The position numbers and the translations under genes are program-made. Under the pieces are notes generated by a model. It made no database searches, was not told where the DNA came from, and saw nothing but the letters and a program-made list of their open reading frames with translations. A stretch of DNA of 64,000 nt from a virus (Duplodnaviria > Heunggongvirae > Uroviricota > Caudoviricetes): IMG/VR virus record IMGVR_UViG_3300033489_000001, positions 286,023 to 350,022 of that record; one strand, 5' to 3'. Of the stretch, positions 41,953 through 53,100 are shown one piece after another (the stretch's first letter is position 1; every line of letters starts with the position of its first letter).

Positions 41953-44271
41953 ATGGAAAAATTCATTTTCATCATAACTTTAGTGATTCTTGGGGGTTGC
42001 GGAACGTCTAACCGTTTAGCTTCTCCTATAATAAATGAAGATGGAAGCACGCCGGACGAAGTTGTAACCGGTGACGCCTTTAATACATCAGATGGCGAAG
42101 TTTCCGAAGCGGCCGTCAACAAAGACGTAGAGGTTGTTGAAGCGGACCAGGATGCCGAGCCAAAAGATGCGGGCCAAGACTCAAGCTCCACGGATAGTCA
42201 AGTTTCTGACGCTGATGTAAAAGACGGCAGTCAAAATGTTGACAGCTCGGTCCAAGATTCAAGCTCCCTGGACGCTAATCAAGATTCAAGCTCCACGGAT
42301 GCTGGCCAAGACTCAACCACGCCGGACGCTAATCAAGATGCGGGTCAAGATGCCGCTCCAGTGTGCGTCCCGACCTGCTCGGGCCTTGTACCTCAGACTT
42401 GCAATGCTAACGGAAACCTCGTAAATGGCTCGCCTTGCCCTTATCTTTGTGCCGTTGGTTCTTGCATTGGCATTTGCACTCCTAATGATACTCAGTGCTC
42501 GGGCCTAAATTCGCAGACTTGTAACGCGGCCGGGCAATGGGTAACTAGCCAAACTTGCCCTTATACATGTTCGGGCGCTGGAGTTTGCAGTGGGAGTTGT
42601 GAAACCAATGCTACTCGATGTGACGGTAACAACTCTAAGACTTGTAACAGCTCGGGCCAATGGGAAACCACAGAAACTTGTCTTTACGTCTGTTCCGGGG
42701 CTGGAATTTGCTCAGGCTCATGTGTACCACAAACTACGCAATGCTCCGGTAATTACAATAATACCCCTCAGACGTGTGATGCTACCGGAAACTGGGTCTC
42801 AGGCACCACTTGTCCTTACGCTTGTATAAATGGGAGTTGTTACGGATCTTGTTTCTACGGAGCTACGCGCTGCTCGGGTAATGATTCTCAAACCTGTGGC
42901 TACGATATGCAATGGCATACCGATCATACATGCCCTTACGTTTGTAAAAATGGTGGGACTTGTTCCGGTAGTTGCGTTCCAGGGTCAAAACAGTGCAACG
43001 GAAACACCACTCAGACTTGTGACTCAACCGGTACTTGGCAGAATGTCTCAACTTGCCAGTTTATGTGCTCTAGCGGCTCTTGCACGGGCGTTTGCGTCCC
43101 CGGCAATACAATGTGCTCAGGGACTCAAATCCAGACTTGTAATGCCTCTGGGCAATGGAATACGGCTTCTAACTGTGCGGCGGTAGCCGGTGCCACTTCC
43201 TATTGCTCGAATGGGGCTTGTGAGTTCAACTGCAACCTCGATTACGATGACTGCGATGGCCTTCCCGGTAATGGTTGTGAGGTTAACCTAAATACGGACA
43301 AAGACAACTGCGGTCAATGCGAGCATAGTTGCTGCGGCGGGACTTGCGAGAATGGGAATTGTGGGATGTATGACACTGGGATTAATCCTGACAATACAGC
43401 CTATGATGTAGACTCAAACAACATTTACTGGTCTACGTCTACGGAACTCAACCAACGCCCACGTACCGGTGGTTCAACCACTGTGTTGGAAACAAATCAG
43501 CCTACAATCAAAGGTGTCACGGTGTCCGGGTCCAATGTGATTTGGAGTTGTGTAGGAACGAACCAAATCAATGGCGGCATCTTTTCTGAGCCAGTTGGCG
43601 GCGGAACGATGACCACTTATACTACGGAAGGTGACAAAGACTATATAACTGCTACAGCTAACGATATCTTCTATACGAGAGCCGACAAAGCAAGTGTTGA
43701 GTACGTTTCAAGGACGAGTAACTCTACGGGTGTGCTCCTTGGTAACACGCTTCCGGATGGCACTCCGGCTAACTTGACCTATGCCATTCCGTTTGTCTCG
43801 GACGGAACATACCTTTACACGAGTTATTCTAGCTATCCGACCGGCCAAAAGCCTATCGTGAAAGTTCCGGTGCATGGCGGCCAGATTACGACTTTTGCTA
43901 CTCCTACGACGCCGGGCTACTATCCTAATGGCCTCTCAATTGATAGCATCAATCTATACTATGTCCTTATCACTATCAATGGCTCAACAACTACTATGAC
44001 AGTTCAAAAACAACCTCTTGCCGGTGGCCCTGCTTCTTCCTTGACCCCGTCCAACTCGCAACTTGGAATATCTACAGCCACCGATGGAACTAATGTCTAC
44101 TATAGCACAAATAAGGCCATTCTAAAAGTTTCCACTAGTGGTAATACCCCTATTACGATTGCCACACTAAGCAGCACTACAACTATAAAAAACATCAAAG
44201 TCTCGAATCAATGTGTGTATTGGTATAACAGCTCGACCAGCACAATCCAAGCGGTAGCTGTCAATCCTTGA
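41953..44271 (+). CDS. myxobacterial-type lipoprotein: DAG-rich linker, Cys-rich repeats, C-terminal beta-propeller
   Basis: Lipobox ILGGC; ~7 repeats QTC...GxW...CPY.C; CDG...NGCE.NL.TD..NCG.C...C; VD..NIYW propeller blades. Confidence 0.85.
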   Translation: MEKFIFIITLVILGGCGTSNRLASPIINEDGSTPDEVVTGDAFNTSDGEVSEAAVNKDVEVVEADQDAEPKDAGQDSSSTDSQVSDADVKDGSQNVDSSVQDSSSLDANQDSSSTDAGQDSTTPDANQDAGQDAAPVCVPTCSGLVPQTCNANGNLVNGSPCPYLCAVGSCIGICTPNDTQCSGLNSQTCNAAGQWVTSQTCPYTCSGAGVCSGSCETNATRCDGNNSKTCNSSGQWETTETCLYVCSGAGICSGSCVPQTTQCSGNYNNTPQTCDATGNWVSGTTCPYACINGSCYGSCFYGATRCSGNDSQTCGYDMQWHTDHTCPYVCKNGGTCSGSCVPGSKQCNGNTTQTCDSTGTWQNVSTCQFMCSSGSCTGVCVPGNTMCSGTQIQTCNASGQWNTASNCAAVAGATSYCSNGACEFNCNLDYDDCDGLPGNGCEVNLNTDKDNCGQCEHSCCGGTCENGNCGMYDTGINPDNTAYDVDSNNIYWSTSTELNQRPRTGGSTTVLETNQPTIKGVTVSGSNVIWSCVGTNQINGGIFSEPVGGGTMTTYTTEGDKDYITATANDIFYTRADKASVEYVSRTSNSTGVLLGNTLPDGTPANLTYAIPFVSDGTYLYTSYSSYPTGQKPIVKVPVHGGQITTFATPTTPGYYPNGLSIDSINLYYVLITINGSTTTMTVQKQPLAGGPASSLTPSNSQLGISTATDGTNVYYSTNKAILKVSTSGNTPITIATLSSTTTIKNIKVSNQCVYWYNSSTSTIQAVAVNP
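44227..44271 (+). repeat. 45-bp direct repeat, copy 1 (3' end of the lipoprotein gene)
   Basis: NSSTSTIQAVAVNP-stop; 37/45 nt identical to 47751-47795. Confidence 0.85.
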
Positions 44272-45283
44272 CGTTAGGGACGCTAATTGAAAGCACATCG
44301 GGGATTTCAGCGAACTGTGGTATCTCTTGATCTAAGCGTTTCATGAAAACTTTCCAATTAGGTGCGTACTTCATAATCAACACTACTTTATCAAGATGAT
44401 GCCGCAGCCTTGATTGACCTGTGGTATCTGTTAGGCGCTGAAAAAGTCGATGTACTAAATTTCCTGATTCATCTCGAGGGGTCAGGCGACGAAGCTCAGC
44501 GAGGACTCCAGGTGCTAGCCGTTTGTAAACAATATTATTGGTCCAATGACCTATTACTTGTGGTTTCCCGTTTGAGGAATCGTTGTATTCCCAATTGTTT
44601 AAACGATAAATTTGCTGATAGAACTCCGGAGGAAATGTTCTAATCCAAGGGCGAAGTTCTTTAGCCACAAACGCCTCCAAAATTACAGTAAGTTCGTCAC
44701 GAGGTCGAAATTTTTGATAACCTGTGGCCTCATCAACTAAAGCAATAATGCCAACCGTAGCAAAACCATGTTGTAGTATCCGGCATCGTTCGGCAAGATG
44801 CTTTTGTTGGGATGCTAGCTTGCCCCTCATTCCCGCCTCGATAATGACATTACATATATCGGGGAGTATTGTTGCTTCATACCCATAAGCAATCTGCCCA
44901 TGAGGCGGAATAAATCTAATGGGAGAATCGCCGCGCGAATCTAAGTCTTTGATATCTATTCCTTTTTTACTCAAACGACCCATTAAAGTGACAACTCTCC
45001 GCGCACCCTTTTCACCACCACTGGTTGAAAGCCCAATCCCTACCTGAAGCCCTCTTTGAGAAAGCACTCGACGACCGTCCTCAAGGACATAGCAGGGGAT
45101 CTCAATAGTCCCTATGCGTAGGGGTCGATCAGGGGCTCCATATTTTGCTATCGCAGGGGGTTCCTTACCACTCCCAACCCATCGAGTTAGAGCGGCTTTG
45201 CTGGCAATTTCTGCTCGTCTCTCTGGTGTGAGATTACGGGCACGAGCTAAACCTCCAGATGATTTTTCAGCTATTGTAGGCAT
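44261..45283 (-). CDS. P63C domain protein (phage antirepressor-like)
   Basis: GG.ARA..LTPERR.EIA.KAA..RW; IPCYVLEDGRRVLSQRG; IIALVDEATGYQ; W..TFP.EFY. Confidence 0.9.
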   Translation of the reverse strand: MPTIAEKSSGGLARARNLTPERRAEIASKAALTRWVGSGKEPPAIAKYGAPDRPLRIGTIEIPCYVLEDGRRVLSQRGLQVGIGLSTSGGEKGARRVVTLMGRLSKKGIDIKDLDSRGDSPIRFIPPHGQIAYGYEATILPDICNVIIEAGMRGKLASQQKHLAERCRILQHGFATVGIIALVDEATGYQKFRPRDELTVILEAFVAKELRPWIRTFPPEFYQQIYRLNNWEYNDSSNGKPQVIGHWTNNIVYKRLAPGVLAELRRLTPRDESGNLVHRLFQRLTDTTGQSRLRHHLDKVVLIMKYAPNWKVFMKRLDQEIPQFAEIPDVLSISVPNVKD

Positions 45284-45383: not shown

Positions 45384-45411
45384 TTGACAGATACCTTTCT
45401 GATGGTAAAAT
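45384..45411 (+). promoter_or_regulatory. sigma70-like promoter
   Basis: TTGACA-16 nt-TAAAAT with TG extension, 8 nt before ATG 45420. Confidence 0.65.
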
Positions 45412-45419
45412 GAGGTAAA

Positions 45420-45629
45420 ATGAAAGACTTCCCGCTTGAACAATGGTTTGATTTAACTAAGAAAATCAGTAAAGACGATGTAACTGACTGCTTATCTCAA
45501 ATGATGCTTTATGCTTACAAAGATGGTTCAAAGCTTAAGGGTAAAGAATGGCAAGAGACTAAAAGAGAATTACGTCAAGCAGTCAAGATCCATAACTGTT
45601 CTTTGTACCTTAAAAATCATAACTCATGA
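45420..45629 (+). CDS. small hypothetical protein
   Basis: Promoter upstream; ATGA overlap with the next gene. Confidence 0.6.
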   Translation: MKDFPLEQWFDLTKKISKDDVTDCLSQMMLYAYKDGSKLKGKEWQETKRELRQAVKIHNCSLYLKNHNS

Positions 45630-46207
45630 AACAACCCAACAAACTTACGGCTCAACAAGTGGCTGAACGCTTCCAAAAACAAGCCATGCCCACAATCTTC
45701 TACCGGCTTACGGAAGAGATTTGCTGGGGGTTCTTTTCAGATGAACATCAACGAATGCATCTTCAAACCGTAGACTTAGAACATAAGACCAACAAGACCA
45801 AGATCCATGTATGGCTTGAAAATCTAGGCACACGCATATTTGAAGTTGCTCAATGCCCGAACGATCCTAAGTGCAAACAAGCGGTAAAAGACCTTCGGCA
45901 TAAACTCACTACAGAACGAGATGAAGTTGAAATTAAATGGACCGATCTAATGATCGAAAAGAACTGGATCAAAGCTGATTTACAAGGGAACCTTGTAGTA
46001 GTTACAGCCTACCCAAGGAGCAATACTAAGTTCACACGAACCGTGGACTTATGGCAAGAAGCTCCGGGCATGATGACGGACATAAAGCCAGGTGATCTCA
46101 AACAAAAAAATGTAAAGATTAAACGAGATATGGGGTCTTTGTCTGTGAGCGCTCTAGGTAGAGAGTTTGTAGATATCCGTTTAGATCATTTACTGTGGAT
46201 AGACTAA
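45626..46207 (+). CDS. tagged DUF4160-like protein with C-terminal extension
   Basis: QQVAERFQKQA then MPTIF...WGFFSDEHQRMHLQ...KIHVWL...W. Confidence 0.6.
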   Translation: MKQPNKLTAQQVAERFQKQAMPTIFYRLTEEICWGFFSDEHQRMHLQTVDLEHKTNKTKIHVWLENLGTRIFEVAQCPNDPKCKQAVKDLRHKLTTERDEVEIKWTDLMIEKNWIKADLQGNLVVVTAYPRSNTKFTRTVDLWQEAPGMMTDIKPGDLKQKNVKIKRDMGSLSVSALGREFVDIRLDHLLWID

Positions 46208-46224
46208 GTGGAAATGCCTACCAC

Positions 46225-46797
46225 ATGAAGCAATCTAACAAAATCGTCGCTAAATCTCTACTACGAATCATCGATGCTAAACCTTTAAAAGGCTTTGTAG
46301 TAGAGGCTCACCTTACAGATGGATCTATTCGAACTATAGACGTTACCTCTCTTCTTCAAGGTTATGGCCCTTTGCTCAAAGAGGTGCGCGAAAATCAAAA
46401 ACTATTTCGCCAAGTAAAAGCTGACCACGGAACCTTGACCTGGCCTAACGGCTTAGATTTCTGTCCGGACGTACTTCTAGAAACTAAAGTATTTCTTCAA
46501 GCTCGCCGAGTTTTAGCAAAATATTTCAAACAAGCTGCACCCCTTATTTGCAAATTTGAAGGGGCATCTGTTTATATCAATTCTGGGGATCACCCTCCAT
46601 TGCACGTTCATGTTAAAAAAGCTGAAGCTGATGCTTCGGTGGAAATCCTTACAGGAAAAATCATTGCCGGATCATTGCCGGTCTCACTAGAAAAAACGGC
46701 TAAAAGATGGCTGAAAAAACAACAGGCAGCCGTCCTAAGAGCCTATGCTCAAGTTCAGGCTGGACAATTACCTGATAAGGTACCGCCTCCAGATTAG
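46225..46797 (+). CDS. DUF2442-tag-DUF4160 fusion (DhiA/DhiT-like antitoxin and toxin domains)
   Basis: DUF2442: KPLKGF..TDG...D...LF..V....GTLTWPNGLDFCPD; linker RRVLAKYFKQA; DUF4160: G..VYINSGDHPPLHVHV...I.TG..IAGSLP. Confidence 0.8.
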   Translation: MKQSNKIVAKSLLRIIDAKPLKGFVVEAHLTDGSIRTIDVTSLLQGYGPLLKEVRENQKLFRQVKADHGTLTWPNGLDFCPDVLLETKVFLQARRVLAKYFKQAAPLICKFEGASVYINSGDHPPLHVHVKKAEADASVEILTGKIIAGSLPVSLEKTAKRWLKKQQAAVLRAYAQVQAGQLPDKVPPPD

Positions 46798-46815
46798 GCA
46801 AAAAACGAAATTAAA

Positions 46816-47310
46816 ATGATAATAAAGGACATTCCTAAAGGGCATAGTTGGGTCTTTATCACGTGTGGAAAAGATCAAAGAATGTGTCTTCAAAAAATTC
46901 CTCTTTATTCCAAGATTAAAGTCTGGCTTGAGGATTCTCACGGAAGACGAATTTTTAAGCCTGAAGGAAAGATATTGGCTAAAGTCTTGAAGGCTATTCA
47001 AGCTAAAGTAACTGCCGATCATCGAAAGATTGAGAGTGAATGGGTCAGAGTTATGATAGGTAAAGGCTGGCTTAAATTAAAATTAGAAGGCAGAGGGGTT
47101 AGAAGAAAAGCCATCTTGATAGCTTATCCTGATTCAGATCATTCTTTCAAACGTACCATAGAGTTGTCGGAATGGGGACCGCCTGAGACCTACGCAACTC
47201 GGCATGATGTAAAACTAGATATTGAAAATGCGGCGCTTATCTTAGATGCACAAAGAAGTGAGGATCGACAAATCTATCTAAGTCTGCCTAAAATCTTGTG
47301 GGTTGAGTAA
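46816..47310 (+). CDS. paralog of 45626..46207, without the tag
   Basis: Shared W.F...QRM.LQ...KI.VWLE..G.RIF...W...MI.K.W.K..L.G...AYP.S...F.RT..L. Confidence 0.75.
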   Translation: MIIKDIPKGHSWVFITCGKDQRMCLQKIPLYSKIKVWLEDSHGRRIFKPEGKILAKVLKAIQAKVTADHRKIESEWVRVMIGKGWLKLKLEGRGVRRKAILIAYPDSDHSFKRTIELSEWGPPETYATRHDVKLDIENAALILDAQRSEDRQIYLSLPKILWVE

Positions 47311-47341
47311 ACAGCACGGTTCAAGCGGTAGCGGTCAATCC

Positions 47342-47369
47342 TTGACCGGTATTTTCCCGATGGTAAGCT
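47342..47369 (+). promoter_or_regulatory. sigma70-like promoter, probably leaderless
   Basis: TTGACC-16 nt-TAAGCT with TG extension, 3 nt before ATG 47373. Confidence 0.55.
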
Positions 47370-47372
47370 AAA

Positions 47373-47747
47373 ATGATTATGCCAAAGAAACCTACAGCCC
47401 AACAAGTTACCGCTCGATTCCAACTAGAAGCTATGGCTAGCCTGCGGCCTCAGACAACCGGAATTGAAGGAGCTGTTGTTTGGGTATCAGTCGGTGAGTT
47501 TGCCGGTTCTGAAGCACAACACGGGCCGAGAATCAAAGTTGTAGTGGGTAGCAAACTCACGTCCGAAAGCCTAAAAAATTCCGTAACCGTAACTCTCACA
47601 AAACCTCCAAAATTAATCGGGACGTTACCGGGAAAAATCAAAAAACAAATTTTAGAATTTGTAGAAAAAAATCGTGAAGCTTTGCTCCAACACTGGAATG
47701 CCGAAATCGATTCTATAGAGCTAGGTAGACAATTGAAAAAAGTATAA
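47373..47747 (+). CDS. tagged DUF4160-related protein
   Basis: QQVTARFQLEA then MASLRPQTTG...VWVS...HGPRIKV...F...N...LLQHWN. Confidence 0.7.
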   Translation: MIMPKKPTAQQVTARFQLEAMASLRPQTTGIEGAVVWVSVGEFAGSEAQHGPRIKVVVGSKLTSESLKNSVTVTLTKPPKLIGTLPGKIKKQILEFVEKNREALLQHWNAEIDSIELGRQLKKV

Positions 47748-47750
47748 AGC

Positions 47751-47795
47751 AACAGCTCAACCAGCACTATCCAAGCCGTGGCTGTGAGTCCATAA
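47751..47795 (+). repeat. 45-bp direct repeat, copy 2 (displaced lipoprotein 3' end)
   Basis: NSSTSTIQAVAVSP-stop; differences from copy 1 mostly synonymous. Confidence 0.85.
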
Positions 47796-47866
47796 CTCTA
47801 ACTTCCCCGAAAAGGTCAGGGATTAAGTCCTTGACCTTTTTACTTTTAACCAATGGAACACTGACT

Positions 47867-48300
47867 GTGCCTACTTTTCGCGAGATAAATGCTATAAACA
47901 TATTTGGTAGACTTGTTACGGTTTTAGAGATTCTAGATGATAATCATCAACCGGTTGGTGACGCTGAATTGAGCTTTGACGACTCAAAAATTGCTGTACT
48001 TGAAGATTTTTATATACGCCGGGCTCATCGTGGAAAACCCCATAATTACGGCAGAGCACTTCTAAAGGAGATCCTCGGGAGGGTTCAACGTCAAGGGGCA
48101 ACTATTTTACGTTGTCATCCCCGCACTTATGAACGGCGTTATGATGAACGGCGTGGTGCCCCCAAATTTTTAATTGTACTAAGAAAATGCCAGAAGCTAA
48201 ATTAATAGAATGGTATGCATCTCAAGGTTTCAGAGAAATTGATCAGGACTCAGATGAATTTCAGCAACATTGTTTAAGACTCTGCATAGCGTTAAGATGA
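47867..48300 (+). pseudogene. frameshifted GNAT acetyltransferase, paralog of 49163..49600
   Basis: GTG start (MPTF...ILDDNHQPVGDAELS...RAHRG..YG..LL); C-terminus PEAKLIEWYASQGF lies in another frame. Confidence 0.75.
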
Positions 48301-48314
48301 TGAGAGCAACTTAG

Positions 48315-48833
48315 TTACGCAACCATTTTTCCAGTAAAGAACTCGAATTTGGTTGGTAACTGTCTAATACAATCATTAAAATCATTAGTAGCGAACGTCG
48401 CCCGTTCTAAACACGGCTCTAGAGGAACGTTTGAACAACCTAAACCCATATCCCCCATCTGCCGTTGAAACCACCCATAGAAGCGCAAACCTTCTAAAAT
48501 ACCAAGCTTGTCAGCATACTTGGTCAGCCTCTTCATTTGATCCTCAATAGGGGCACACCAACCCTTCAATCTCTCTGGACCATCTGGGGTTTTTTCAAAC
48601 CCATCGAATTTAAACATGGGGAAATTGAACTCAGTTTTAGTTGGCGTCTCTATTAATTTTATTTCATTATTGGTGAAGCCTGAGGCCAAAACCAAGCCGA
48701 TCTCTGTGGCCTTAAAAAATGGGCGGCCATCACGTATCCACCGCCAACTTATTGGGATAGTATCAATAGTTGAAATTGCCTTAATCGTGTAAGTTTCAGG
48801 TTCTGCTTTAATTGGATTTGAACTTTGTTGCAT
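48315..48833 (-). CDS. hypothetical protein, paralog of 49578..50111
   Basis: Shared IPISW.W...G.P.F.ATE..LVLASG...NEIKLIE...LRFYG.F.R.MG.M.LGCSN.PL. Confidence 0.8.
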   Translation of the reverse strand: MQQSSNPIKAEPETYTIKAISTIDTIPISWRWIRDGRPFFKATEIGLVLASGFTNNEIKLIETPTKTEFNFPMFKFDGFEKTPDGPERLKGWCAPIEDQMKRLTKYADKLGILEGLRFYGWFQRQMGDMGLGCSNVPLEPCLERATFATNDFNDCIRQLPTKFEFFTGKMVA

Positions 48834-49162: not shown

Positions 49163-49600
49163 ATGCCTTCTTTCCTTATAGAAGAGGTAAAAAAATCTGG
49201 TAGGCTTGTTGCTAGCATAAAAATCCTGGATGATAACCACCAACCAGTGGGCAATGCGGAATTGAGTCTTATCAACCCAAATACTGCCAGGCTTGATGAT
49301 ATTTACATATACCGGGCTCATCGCGGAAATAGCTATGGCGTTGAACTTCTAAAGAAGACTCTTGAAGAAGCAAGACGGCAGGGAGCTACTATTTTACGTT
49401 GTCACCCAAGCCCCTACGAATATGGACCTAATGAGTTGAAGGATAAAAGAACACTCCCTAGTCGCACGCCACAAGCCAAGTTAATAACGTGGTACGTGGC
49501 TCAAGGATTTAAAGAGCTTAACCTTAAACTAGAACAAGATCGTGATGAATTTGAACGATATTCTTGCAAACTTTACATTATGCTGAACTCGACCACTTGA
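49163..49600 (+). CDS. GNAT family N-acetyltransferase
   Basis: LDDIYIYRAHRGNSYGVELL motif A; WY...GF motif B. Confidence 0.85.
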   Translation: MPSFLIEEVKKSGRLVASIKILDDNHQPVGNAELSLINPNTARLDDIYIYRAHRGNSYGVELLKKTLEEARRQGATILRCHPSPYEYGPNELKDKRTLPSRTPQAKLITWYVAQGFKELNLKLEQDRDEFERYSCKLYIMLNSTT

Positions 49601-50111
49601 AGCTTTTTGGCAGCTTTTCTACAAACTCAAATGAGTCAAAGGTGAGCGGATTGGAACCTAAAGGAATATTTGAACAGCCTAAACTCATAAGCCCCATATG
49701 ACGCGCAAAAACCCCGTAAAACCGTAAACTTTCAAACATACCCAACCTAATTGCATATTGCACTAAGGTTTTCACCCGATCCTCAATAGCGTGCCAGGCT
49801 TCGGATTCTTCTATATCTGCTTTGGGTAACCAGGTTCCAGATTTCTCCACGCCCTCCTTAAATAATTCCGTTTCAAACATAGAGAGTCTAACCTCTTTTT
49901 GGACTTGGCCTTCGATTAGTTTTATTTCGTTACTAGCATATCCTGAAGCCAAAACGAGGTTATTTTCTGTCGCGCTAAAGACAGGAAAACCATTGGTCAT
50001 CCACCACCAACTTATTGGGATAATTATAGGGTCAGGAATGACATTTAGATATTCACTCATAGAGGCAAGAGAAACAGATCCCTTAGAATAAAGTTCTGTG
50101 TTCGTATCCAT
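49578..50111 (-). CDS. hypothetical protein, paralog of 48315..48833
   Basis: Likely start ATG 50111, right after the upstream stop. Confidence 0.8.
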   Translation of the reverse strand: MDTNTELYSKGSVSLASMSEYLNVIPDPIIIPISWWWMTNGFPVFSATENNLVLASGYASNEIKLIEGQVQKEVRLSMFETELFKEGVEKSGTWLPKADIEESEAWHAIEDRVKTLVQYAIRLGMFESLRFYGVFARHMGLMSLGCSNIPLGSNPLTFDSFEFVEKLPKSFKWSSSA

Positions 50112-50112
50112 T

Positions 50113-53100
50113 TTAGCTTCTCTTAGACAACGTAATAGTTGAAGGATCAATAGTTAGGCGAACGTTGTTTCTAACAAGTGGGTGGCCCTCTATTCTAGCT
50201 AGATCAGCGGCAGAGTAACCTTCATTCTTTCCGTTCGTCCCTATGGCTATATCCCCTGGAATCGGGGTTCCAACGGTAGGACGAACTACGTTGGTTATGA
50301 CTAGCATCATCAACTCATCCCCCGCAGAGACTTCAGTAGCGCCTACATTCGTTGGAGCGTTTCTAACAAGCATGGCTCTACCCATTAGAACGTTGGTGTG
50401 ATTATCAGAAGGTAGAAGGGACTGGCCTTGAAGTGAAATTTCGCCGCCTGGATGGGGTCCATTTCCAACAAAAACAGAACCGCCTCTGTTCACTCTGAAA
50501 TTAGTTAGAAGTGAGTAATTTCCTTGTTCACCATCAACATGAACAAGCACGTCTCCAGGGGAAACAACACCAGAGGATGCCGTGTCCAAAGGCATCTCAT
50601 CTTGTTCCATGTGGTTGACAGCTAAGCCCGTGGAATGGCCTGCCGCAACGTCGTTTGAAAACACTAACGGCGATTGAGTGATCCCAAATAGTTGACCTTT
50701 AAGATCTGAATCGCGAAAAAGTGCTCCCAAGGGAAGGACATCGCTTCCATGATATTCTGTTCCAATATCCGTTAGATTATAAGAGGAGAAAGTGTTTGGC
50801 AAAGACAACGGACGATCATCGTAACTATGAGCGGGCGGATAATTAGTTGGGTCCGCGAAAGCTACGTCCATAAAATGTAGTGGAGAAATAGAACCATCAC
50901 CCGCAAACCGACCAGTGCCTAATGTAGTTGCGAAAGAAGTAGAGGCTAAAACCTCTACCACTTTTTGGTTAGGTCGAGTAAGTGCAGCTTGATTCAATTG
51001 CGTATGAGAAAGTTGATATGCATCGCCGGATAGAAGAGGACCGGGTTTATAACCAGTATCTGCGTAGGATGTCTGTGAGCCCCAAGCATCGCCTTGATAC
51101 GAACTACGACTATGATTAATTACTACCTGGTCAGAGGATTGAGCCGGGCCGGGAAGAACAGCGGAAGGACCGGCTACGTACTTGTTGATGTTGTTATGAC
51201 GCCCGGTAATGGAAGTTTGATCTACCGGGCCGCCTTTAACCGATGACCAACTGTTTGAAAGAACACCCGATGGTTGCGTCATTACCAATCGGGCTTCTGA
51301 GTTAAGGTCAAACGTTCCACGATCAAAACCGAAGATAGAAGCTTCAATCACATAATTTCCTGACGCAAAAGAAGCTATTGGATTTGGAGAACGAGCAATA
51401 TCAATAGCATTTGCGTTTAGAATAAATGTGGAGTCCCCATCATCATCAATTTCTATCCACATAACTGGACCGTCTGATTGAGTCATGTTCTGGCGCAAGA
51501 GATTCGTGGCCCCTCCAGTAATAGGTGCTCTTGTACCTGCATCAAAAGCTGACCCTCCGTTTGGACCGGATGTAGTAAAGTAATTGGTAGCTTCATATAC
51601 AGCGAATAAACGAGCAACTCCGTAGAAAGGTGGTAATTCTAACCCTTGTCGGCCAAGACTTCTGGTGTCCGTGAAGAAACGCATCCCTGCATAATTATTA
51701 CTGTATATTGTTAGGGCCGCATTGTAAATCGCCGGTAGTGCCGTGGTGGGATCTATAGTTGTAAAAGCCGCGTAGGTACGAACCGAGCTTGGATTGTAAT
51801 TTACATAATTCTTGTCAGCGTCTCCGTAACTACTCCCACTTTTACTATCGGTAACAAAATTGATGCCTTGTGAAAAGACGGAACCAACGTCATTGGGTAG
51901 AATAGGAAGACGCAATTCGCCCCAACCGGGCACTAGATGGCGTGGAAGACTTACGTAGATACTACTATAAGCATCATTAGAAGCAGTTGTGCCACAGAAT
52001 AAACCCAGAGGATCGGTGGTTGTCCATTTAGCAGTAGTGCCATCTCGTTCATTAAGGGGCATCACACCCTGTGCTTGGTGTACCGCAAAAGTGACCGAAG
52101 TACTACCTTTAGCCTTAATCGGACGATCAACAGTAATTGAGGTAGAAGGTGTGATGCCAATAACAGTGTATCGACCAGCTCCAGGACCACTGGTAATAAC
52201 TACAGCGTCTCGTAATGCCGTAGTCCCTACACTCCCCACCGTTATAACAGGGGAGTTATCTGTACCTATAGTACCCGTCGTGGGGGCTCCAGCCTTAACC
52301 GCCGTGTAGGGATTAGCTGCCATCCCATCTATAGTAAGTAAACCGATTCCTGCATCATTGGGGAAATTGATTCTACGGAAAGGCGTCAATATGATAGATT
52401 TACTTCCGAGATCCGCATAAACCTCAGAGGTTACTGGGAGTAAATTATTAAAAGCGGCGCTTCTAAATTTGCTCCACAAAGGAGCCCAACTCACTCGTGA
52501 ACCTTGGTTGCTAGAAGGAATCCCTGATTGTTGGACAAGTAACTCGGCTGAAGGATTGATATAAGAAACTGAGTGAAGTGAATTCGGCCGCCTTGATAAC
52601 CCACGCCCCGCCCCATAAACTGCATGAAGTGTGATGTGAAGGATAGTTGGGGTCGCAGTCAAAGAGGTTTGCGTTGGGAAAGTGCCGCCGAAAGTAATGA
52701 CCAAATCATCTGATGGGGTTGGAACCGCCGGAGTCACTGTATACATTGTGGGAGGGATGGGGTCGGTCTCCCCGTCAAACCTAAGACTTACCGCACCAAC
52801 CACACTATCATTTAACCACCTTACTTGGTCAGTATCGCCTCCAGGAAGTCCATGCTGCAAATTCGAAACTGGGACGGAAATCACGTCACCACTTGCAAAG
52901 ACATCCCCAGTCACTTGGTTCGTCGTCTTAACCGTGAACCCTAAGCTCCATCCCACATTTATATCAGCCGTCCCCGGAGGGGTAACTGTAGAGCCATGTG
53001 GTTTTACAATGCACTCAATTGGCTGCACCACAGCGGCATCAGAGAACACCATACGGATGTTGTCAGGAGCGTCAAGCTTAGTCACCCCAAGGGCTACGGC

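Follow-up and report, generated by a model that had tools for sequence, protein, structure and literature searches.

A short helical leader before toxin-type domains in a DUF4160/DUF2442-like gene cluster of a 411-kb phage

Toxins of the DUF4160 family and antitoxins of the DUF2442 family are normally encoded in bacteria as pairs of separate genes, and a phage locus in which the two are joined in single chains, with an additional helix placed directly before the toxin-type domain, raises the question of what this helix is for. The locus occupies positions 45420-47747 of a 64,000-nucleotide stretch of viral DNA (hereafter the window), which corresponds to bases 286023-350022 of a virus record that is complete (411,618 bp), carries direct terminal repeats and has a G+C content of 43-44%. 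It is filled by five open reading frames, all on the plus strand and labeled A to E (Table 1). A previous sequence-only reading of this DNA had described four of them as DUF4160/DUF2442-type genes, three with a peptide tag and one without, and had proposed that a head-maturation protease cuts at this tag to release the toxins. The analysis presented here finds four DUF4160-superfamily genes (B to E) in an accessory cassette of this 411-kb phage, with the tag as an N-terminal leader in B and E and as an inter-domain linker in C.

The leader helix and the domains behind it

Genes B and E share 13 of their 24 N-terminal residues (pairwise E = 2e-5), while the remainder of the two sequences does not align, which bears out the earlier claim that two genes carry a tag leader ahead of the native Met. 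The tag is a helical peptide of about 14 residues with the consensus (R/K/Q)-(V/I)-(A/V)-x-R-(F/Y), followed by 1-4 residues and (E/Q/T)-A-M, and its final residue corresponds to the Met with which stand-alone bacterial toxins begin. Its helix is amphipathic, with a near-invariant Arg-Phe and a conserved hydrophobic face at positions i, i+4 and i+8. In the AlphaFold2 (AF2) model of B it spans residues 9-19, with a predicted local distance difference test score (pLDDT) of 70-75 against more than 90 for the core; in both the B and the C models the leaders are helical and modeled with lower confidence than the cores. A comparison of the 14 tag codons between B and E gives 5 identical, 5 synonymously different and 4 non-synonymously different codons, while the tags of two B-type copies in a related 485-kb phage differ by 5 synonymous versus 2 non-synonymous changes. 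Hence, because the amino acids are conserved despite synonymous codon changes, the leader is judged to be translated and under protein-level selection.

The same evidence bears on a trivial explanation, namely that mis-called start codons have joined upstream sequence, in frame but not translated, to these proteins. Many B-family database entries do have unrelated Lys/Arg-rich upstream extensions, which may be mis-called starts, and a -10-like box lies so near E that its first ATG might escape transcription. However, the amino acid conservation extends across genomes ranging from 43% to 59% G+C, the start of B overlaps the stop of A, and the helix of C lies within an open frame and is flanked by two Pfam domains, so that an artefact of this kind is scarcely credible.

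Searching all six frames of the 411,618-bp genome yields no occurrence of the motif beyond B, E and the C linker, and the tag is therefore not a genome-wide one. PIP-box and beta-clamp motifs, signal-peptidase sites and ClpX N-degrons were compared by eye, and the conserved positions do not fit any of them.

Gene C provides the clearest domain assignment. Residues 15-87 match Pfam DUF2442 (PF10387) with 33 bits (cut-off 23.9; 34.7 bits when the genome is scanned on its own) and residues 116-173 match DUF4160 (PF13711) with 40.6 bits (cut-off 23; 42.7 bits in the own-genome scan), these being the sole above-threshold copies of either domain in the genome. All three His of the His-x-Pro-Pro-His-x-His signature align with those of bacterial DUF4160 proteins. 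Compared with the bacterial single-domain proteins, the DUF2442 part ends at ...PDVLLE and the DUF4160 part begins at the position of the bacterial initiator Met-Pro; between them lies a phage-specific insert of about 18 residues that includes RRVLAKYFKQA, the junction previously claimed. The AF2 model (pLDDT 92.7, predicted template modeling score, pTM, 0.64) shows the linker as a helix of residues 88-103, and the best PDB neighbours of its DUF2442 half are 2auw_B (Z 9.2, 81 residues aligned) and 3k8r_B (Z 7.1), followed by 2x8n, 6npb, 3ms5 and 3luu. The same fused architecture is present in four metagenomic homologs with 54-71% identity, in which the tag again constitutes the linker; the position after the tag drifts within the C family (A, V, V, M, L), the post-tag Met being kept in the homolog P0182. 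Used as a query, C found no relative in an IMG/VR scan and retrieved just 'unknown function' families from PHROGs, and PDB sequence searches with C and with the queries A4 and A3 returned nothing relevant. From its domain content C is thus a predicted self-contained chain of an antitoxin-type (DUF2442) and a toxin-type (DUF4160) domain, with the linker helix as the putative hinge between the two.

Genes B and D are paralogs (34% identity), of which D is the untagged one and begins at the ancestral Met, in agreement with the earlier description. Neither has a Pfam match. In the B family, whose profile finds 245 representative clusters, 21 of 102 members match DUF4160 (PF13711) weakly (E <= 0.1, best 1.5e-5) and none of the 102 matches DUF2442 (PF10387); mainly the middle His of the signature is kept, along with an invariant Arg. 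The AF2 model of B is of high confidence (pLDDT 93.2, pTM 0.86). The best PDB neighbours of its C-terminal half (residues 113-192) are 3k8r_B (Z 4.7), 3ms5, 6npb, 2auw_B (Z 3.8), 3luu and 2x8n, Z values that can arise by chance, and its N-terminal half shares with the DUF4160 half of C the weak neighbours 1bob, 7xay, 9uuo, 7d8g, 5o7o, 1s7f and 4kgh. Foldseek with the B model gave no match at E <= 0.001 in PDB and BFVD, and ESM Atlas returned just weak HSP20/CS-like matches for the C-terminal half, with a poor Atlas model. Since the neighbour lists of B and C overlap for both halves, B and D are best read as DUF4160-like and DUF2442-like folds packed together in the canonical bacterial gene order, on the level of predicted fold and not of family membership. 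The B-type models offer a predicted view of how the two folds pack.

Gene E scores 18.5 bits against PF13711, under the cut-off of 23, and hhalign of E with the DUF4160 half of C gives E = 0.0014 over 70 columns. Its family keeps the first His alone from the DUF4160 signature. All 20 close homologs (53-69% identity) have the leader. By these scores E is a diverged, sub-threshold DUF4160 relative with a putative toxin-type fold alone. The assignment of four genes to the DUF4160/DUF2442 class therefore stands at Pfam level for C; B and D have no Pfam match and owe their class to family matches and fold neighbours, and E stays below threshold.

Table 1. Features of the gene cluster and its borders, in window coordinates
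Feature	Position	Strand	Description
35-nt repeat, copy 1	44238..44272	+	true 3' end of a 772-aa lipoprotein gene; left cassette border
Near-consensus sigma-70-like promoter	45384..45411	+	TTGACA, 16-nt spacer, TAAAAT, TG upstream, 11/12; before gene A
Gene A, 69 aa	45420..45629	+	without family; stop overlaps B start (ATGA)
Gene B, 193 aa	45626..46207	+	leader, diverged DUF4160-like half, DUF2442-like half
Leader of B, residues 8-21, ends Ala-Met	45647..45688	+	BLAST with E; codon comparison; helix in model
Gene C, 190 aa, ATG at 46225	46225..46797	+	DUF2442, leader helix and DUF4160 in one chain
C linker helix, residues 88-105	46486..46539	+	contains tag-like RRVLAKYFKQA (46504-46536); without counterpart in bacterial DUF2442/DUF4160
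Gene D, 164 aa	46816..47310	+	untagged B paralog; start is the ancestral Met
35-nt repeat, copy 2	47312..47346	+	after D; with hairpin 47332-47348 and TTGACC box before gene E
Gene E, 124 aa	47373..47747	+	leader and short diverged DUF4160-like domain, invariant HGPRIK
Leader of E, residues 8-21	47394..47435	+	BLAST with B; codon comparison
35-nt repeat, copy 3	47762..47796	+	right border, after gene E

The leader in related phages and on other folds

Five related huge phages (252-485 kb) were scanned with a degenerate pattern, which matched a single time when read backwards as a control, and the scan recovered the known genes together with new carriers. A 14-column hidden Markov model of the E-family tags proved too weak for other families, hence anchored motifs with controls were used instead; a looser protein motif run on four whole genomes matched as often as its reversed-sequence control, and strict matches alone were counted. 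Among the 76 B-family leaders with 8 or more residues, 18 have the motif directly before the Met, versus 0.45% of control windows; the tag is optional there, the other members having unrelated basic leaders or none. The suggested survey of related phages for tag-DUF4160 fusions has thus found the tag on the B and E families and as the linker of the C family.

Beyond these, the tag heads three PIN-like proteins (L017, L168 and L296), all below the Pfam threshold and with no antitoxin-type gene adjoining. In the one of 139 residues the match to the DUF5615/PIN-like fold starts at residue 17, after the tag, and two relatives of this protein carry variant tags. No DUF5615/PIN-like gene is present in the window. 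On two HExxH proteins the tag occurs in a Tyr variant. A scan of metagenomes with the strict DNA pattern gave at least 120 matches, and among the matches listed most are glycosyltransferase helices or wrong frames, along with one B-type gene and a 339-aa protein with a DRAT ADP-ribosyltransferase (ART) domain above cut-off; the same pattern found L017 itself alone in IMG/VR. The ADP-ribosyltransferase and the HExxH proteins are probably tagged. As the tag heads the B and E families and PIN-like proteins, and probably other folds as well, it is portable and not a feature of DUF4160.

Two observations may be added here. This phage has an HExxH protein of its own outside the window (G000:C1:187601-189001, minus strand), a weak homolog of the tagged HExxH proteins, with two R-V-x-x-R-(F/Y) stretches and no Ala-Met ending. 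In addition, four viral contigs of 8-38 kb and about 65% G+C (L169-L172) encode a small protein in which an internal stretch matches the PIN-type tag and the residues following it at 13 of 17 positions.

This distribution has to be set against the view that the helix is an inherited structural or oligomerisation element, which arose once in the phage DUF4160 lineage, is ancient in the E family, and resembles the tags of other folds by convergence. Distant E relatives (27-28% identity) already have a shorter leader of the form V-x-x-L-F-E-M, the same short motif arises independently in glycosyltransferases, and in C the element is a plain inter-domain helix. On the other hand, B and E are alike in the leader only, their domains being too diverged for BLAST, and most B-family members are without it. 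The variants in PIN-like proteins moreover parallel those in DUF4160 proteins, as in D-R-F-K-D-Q-T and D-R-F-Q-D-K-T. A metagenomic chimera on a 38.5-kb contig (P0004) has a leader and first ~35 residues identical to B and a remainder 54% identical to D, which shows recombination near the leader and an exchange of the leader region. An inherited structural helix is, on balance, quite unlikely; were the helix just a structural extension, the finding would be a diverged phage branch of a known toxin-antitoxin (TA) family.

The position at which the tag ends suggests a further possibility, that of a dual start, in which each gene gives two products, one long and tagged, the other short, native and starting from the conserved Met, and the helix masks or destabilises the toxin-type domain, comparable to lambda S, whose two starts give holin and antiholin. 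The last Met of the tag stands just where bacterial DUF4160 has its ancestral start codon; this Met is invariant in the E family and kept in N-terminally tagged B and PIN-like proteins, its position drifts precisely in the C family, where the tag is internal, and untagged family members begin exactly there. Nevertheless, no Shine-Dalgarno-like sequence is found before the internal ATG of B and E, in some of the tagged B and PIN-like proteins the Met is replaced by T or A, and the ART-domain protein keeps Ala-Met though no domain begins there, so the Met may simply belong to the tag. We hold two translation starts to be unlikely.

Candidate roles of the leader

What fits best is a recognition handle or pro-peptide, because a conserved amphipathic helix is joined at the ancestral start Met of different toxin-type folds and is absent from their bacterial versions. 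By analogy with the capsid-targeting sequence (CTS) of phage T4, we tentatively favour the reading of the tag helix as such a pro-peptide or handle. One phage factor would recognise the shared helix, as happens with the CTS of the T4 internal proteins, and cutting the helix off at Ala-Met would give back the native N-terminus. For C the same cut would in addition detach the antitoxin-type domain, arming the toxin-type domain only after sorting. In T4, internal proteins that are otherwise diverse have the conserved CTS in common; it directs their loading into the head, and foreign proteins to which it is fused are loaded likewise (PMC3012670).

Several observations weigh against this reading. 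B, D and E are without most of the His-x-Pro-Pro-His-x-His signature kept by C and by bacterial toxins, and because of this loss their toxin label is uncertain and they may not be toxins. The cassette is surrounded by replication and methylase genes and no head genes. In this genome no other protein is tagged, all carriers belonging to the DUF4160 class, and tagged proteins number just 2-5 per genome. The helix is internal in C, unlike the N-terminal CTS. The motif R-V-A-E-R-F-(S/T)-x-E-A-M is also a common C-terminal helix of GT1-type glycosyltransferases (L190, L219, L227, L230 and others); from this recurrence it follows that the tag motif alone is not diagnostic and that single matches on short contigs, such as the ART protein on a 2.2-kb contig, are to be taken as suggestive and could be convergent. 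The only phage record with homologs is LR745208.1, uncultured and unannotated, and all relatives are uncultured.

The details of the proposed cut weigh in the same direction. T4-type prohead proteases cut at sites of the form L/I-x-E and phiKZ-type ones at S/A/G-x-E. What precedes Ala-Met varies between E, Q, T, L and S, so no site of either type is evident. The Pfam models PF03420 (T4-type) and PF04586 (HK97-type) found no prohead protease in the genome, which is a weak negative, PF03420 being silent in control genomes too. Cutting by a head-maturation protease, as the sequence-only reading had it, is accordingly a coherent hypothesis that is not supported, though not refuted, and its suggestion of a Trojan horse may likewise be called a coherent hypothesis. 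The most extended form of the idea holds that in huge phages a universal leader of about 14 residues carries toxins of several unrelated TA families (DUF4160, PIN/DUF5615, ADP-ribosyltransferase) without cognate antitoxins; that it sorts them to the virion or to a phage protease; that its removal at Ala-Met restores the native N-terminus and, in C, sheds the antitoxin domain; and that the armed toxins would then act only in the next cell or against a co-infecting rival. Taken with all its steps, this proposal appears improbable.

Recognition of the helix might also take place without any virion role, if it were a docking site for one shared cytoplasmic partner, such as an inhibitor, a chaperone or an AAA+ machine of the phage, which would keep several toxin-type proteins under control and stand in for family-specific antitoxins. 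No antitoxin-type gene or domain adjoins the tagged E and PIN-like proteins, and the conserved Arg-Phe with its hydrophobic face is as in a peptide-in-groove interaction. Tags are moreover alike within one genome (TAQQV in B and E here, N-V in B and E of the 485-kb phage), a likeness that rests on three genomes, and two phages have a BCS1-like AAA+ gene upstream of a tagged one. However, the two BCS1-like proteins share just 26% identity, and the cluster in the window has no gene of this kind beside it; neither was a conserved neighbour found, gene A having no homolog in three related huge phages. Control through docking is therefore a doubtful alternative. As to the positions of the BCS1-like genes (L167:1147-2469 and L003:5717-7069), one immediately precedes a tagged PIN-like gene; the other, in another phage, is followed by a B-type gene after about 0.9 kb.

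Should the tentatively favoured reading hold and the helix be a sorting or processing label, it would offer a simple way to recognise, from sequence, the effector cargo that uncultured huge phages carry, and would show a phage keeping several toxin families safe without separate antitoxins. The permuted single-chain DUF2442-DUF4160 arrangement would then be a natural pro-toxin design for this TA family.

Genomic setting and comparison with known systems

The genes neighbouring the cluster encode helicases, DNA methyltransferases, a transposase and AAA+ ATPases, which places the cluster in an accessory region and not in a head module. A 35-nt repeat has further copies behind D and behind E, with 80-89% identity to the first one, so that the genes lie in repeat-bounded cassettes, one holding a P63C-domain gene together with A-D and the other holding E. 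Within the first cassette, the gene for the P63C-domain protein (window 44261-45283, minus strand, Pfam E = 8e-31) occupies the interval from the lipoprotein gene to the cluster. The same peptide as that of the repeat is readable upstream of an E homolog from another sample (P0015), and the repeat seems to travel along with gene E. Further on, two convergent genes, one for a GNAT acetyltransferase and one of 172 aa, are present in duplicate (window 47831-48833 and 49163-50150; 56% and 45% identity). The cluster DNA gave no blastn match among phage records.

The host-type sigma70 promoters described earlier reduce to one. The near-consensus site before gene A is the only strong sigma-70-like site within the cluster region, and the total number of promoter-like sites is not enriched over shuffled sequence (10 versus 7.5 +/- 3.0).

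The closest bacterial counterpart is DhiTA of Dickeya dadantii 3937, a type II pair with a DUF4160 toxin and a DUF2442 antitoxin in separate genes (PMC8198452), and DUF2442 genes typically follow DUF4160 genes (PMC12065111). A bacterial scan with one genome per species yielded 80 loci, 46 of them with both domains; in all 46 the domains are separate open reading frames with DUF4160 upstream, none being fused, in line both with that literature and with what the sequence-only reading took as established. The bacterial DUF4160 genes start at Met-Pro, with no conserved upstream reading, and none of the 46 carries the tag. The two-gene layout with the toxin first is not found in the phage cluster, where B, C and D are single chains and E is without a partner gene. 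The phage proteins resemble the DhiTA pair in that C holds both Pfam domains and the three signature His, while B and D have the same two folds, as far as these can be assigned, in toxin-then-antitoxin order. They differ in that the parts are fused in one chain, with the order reversed in C, in that a phage-specific helix is inserted before the toxin-type domain, and in that most of the His signature is gone from B, D and E.

With the DUF5615/PIN-like toxins, which are partners of DUF433 antitoxins, a resemblance exists for L017, L168 and L296 from residue 17 on; these differ from the known toxins in scoring below the Pfam threshold, in bearing the leader and in having no adjacent antitoxin-type gene.

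The likeness to the CTS of T4, carried by IPI-III and Alt, lies in a short conserved N-terminal peptide that heads diverse, partly enzymatic or toxic proteins, and in the small number of carrier genes per genome. Alt of T4 is an ADP-ribosyltransferase, and such an enzyme is probably among the carriers here. The two peptides differ in that their sequences are unrelated and that the tag, N-terminal in B, E and the PIN-like proteins, can be internal, as in the C family; the tag also has no conserved Glu cleavage site, and the two Pfam models found no prohead protease to go with it. Two known kinds meet at this locus, leader-tagged phage effectors and the DUF4160/DUF2442 toxin-antitoxin family.

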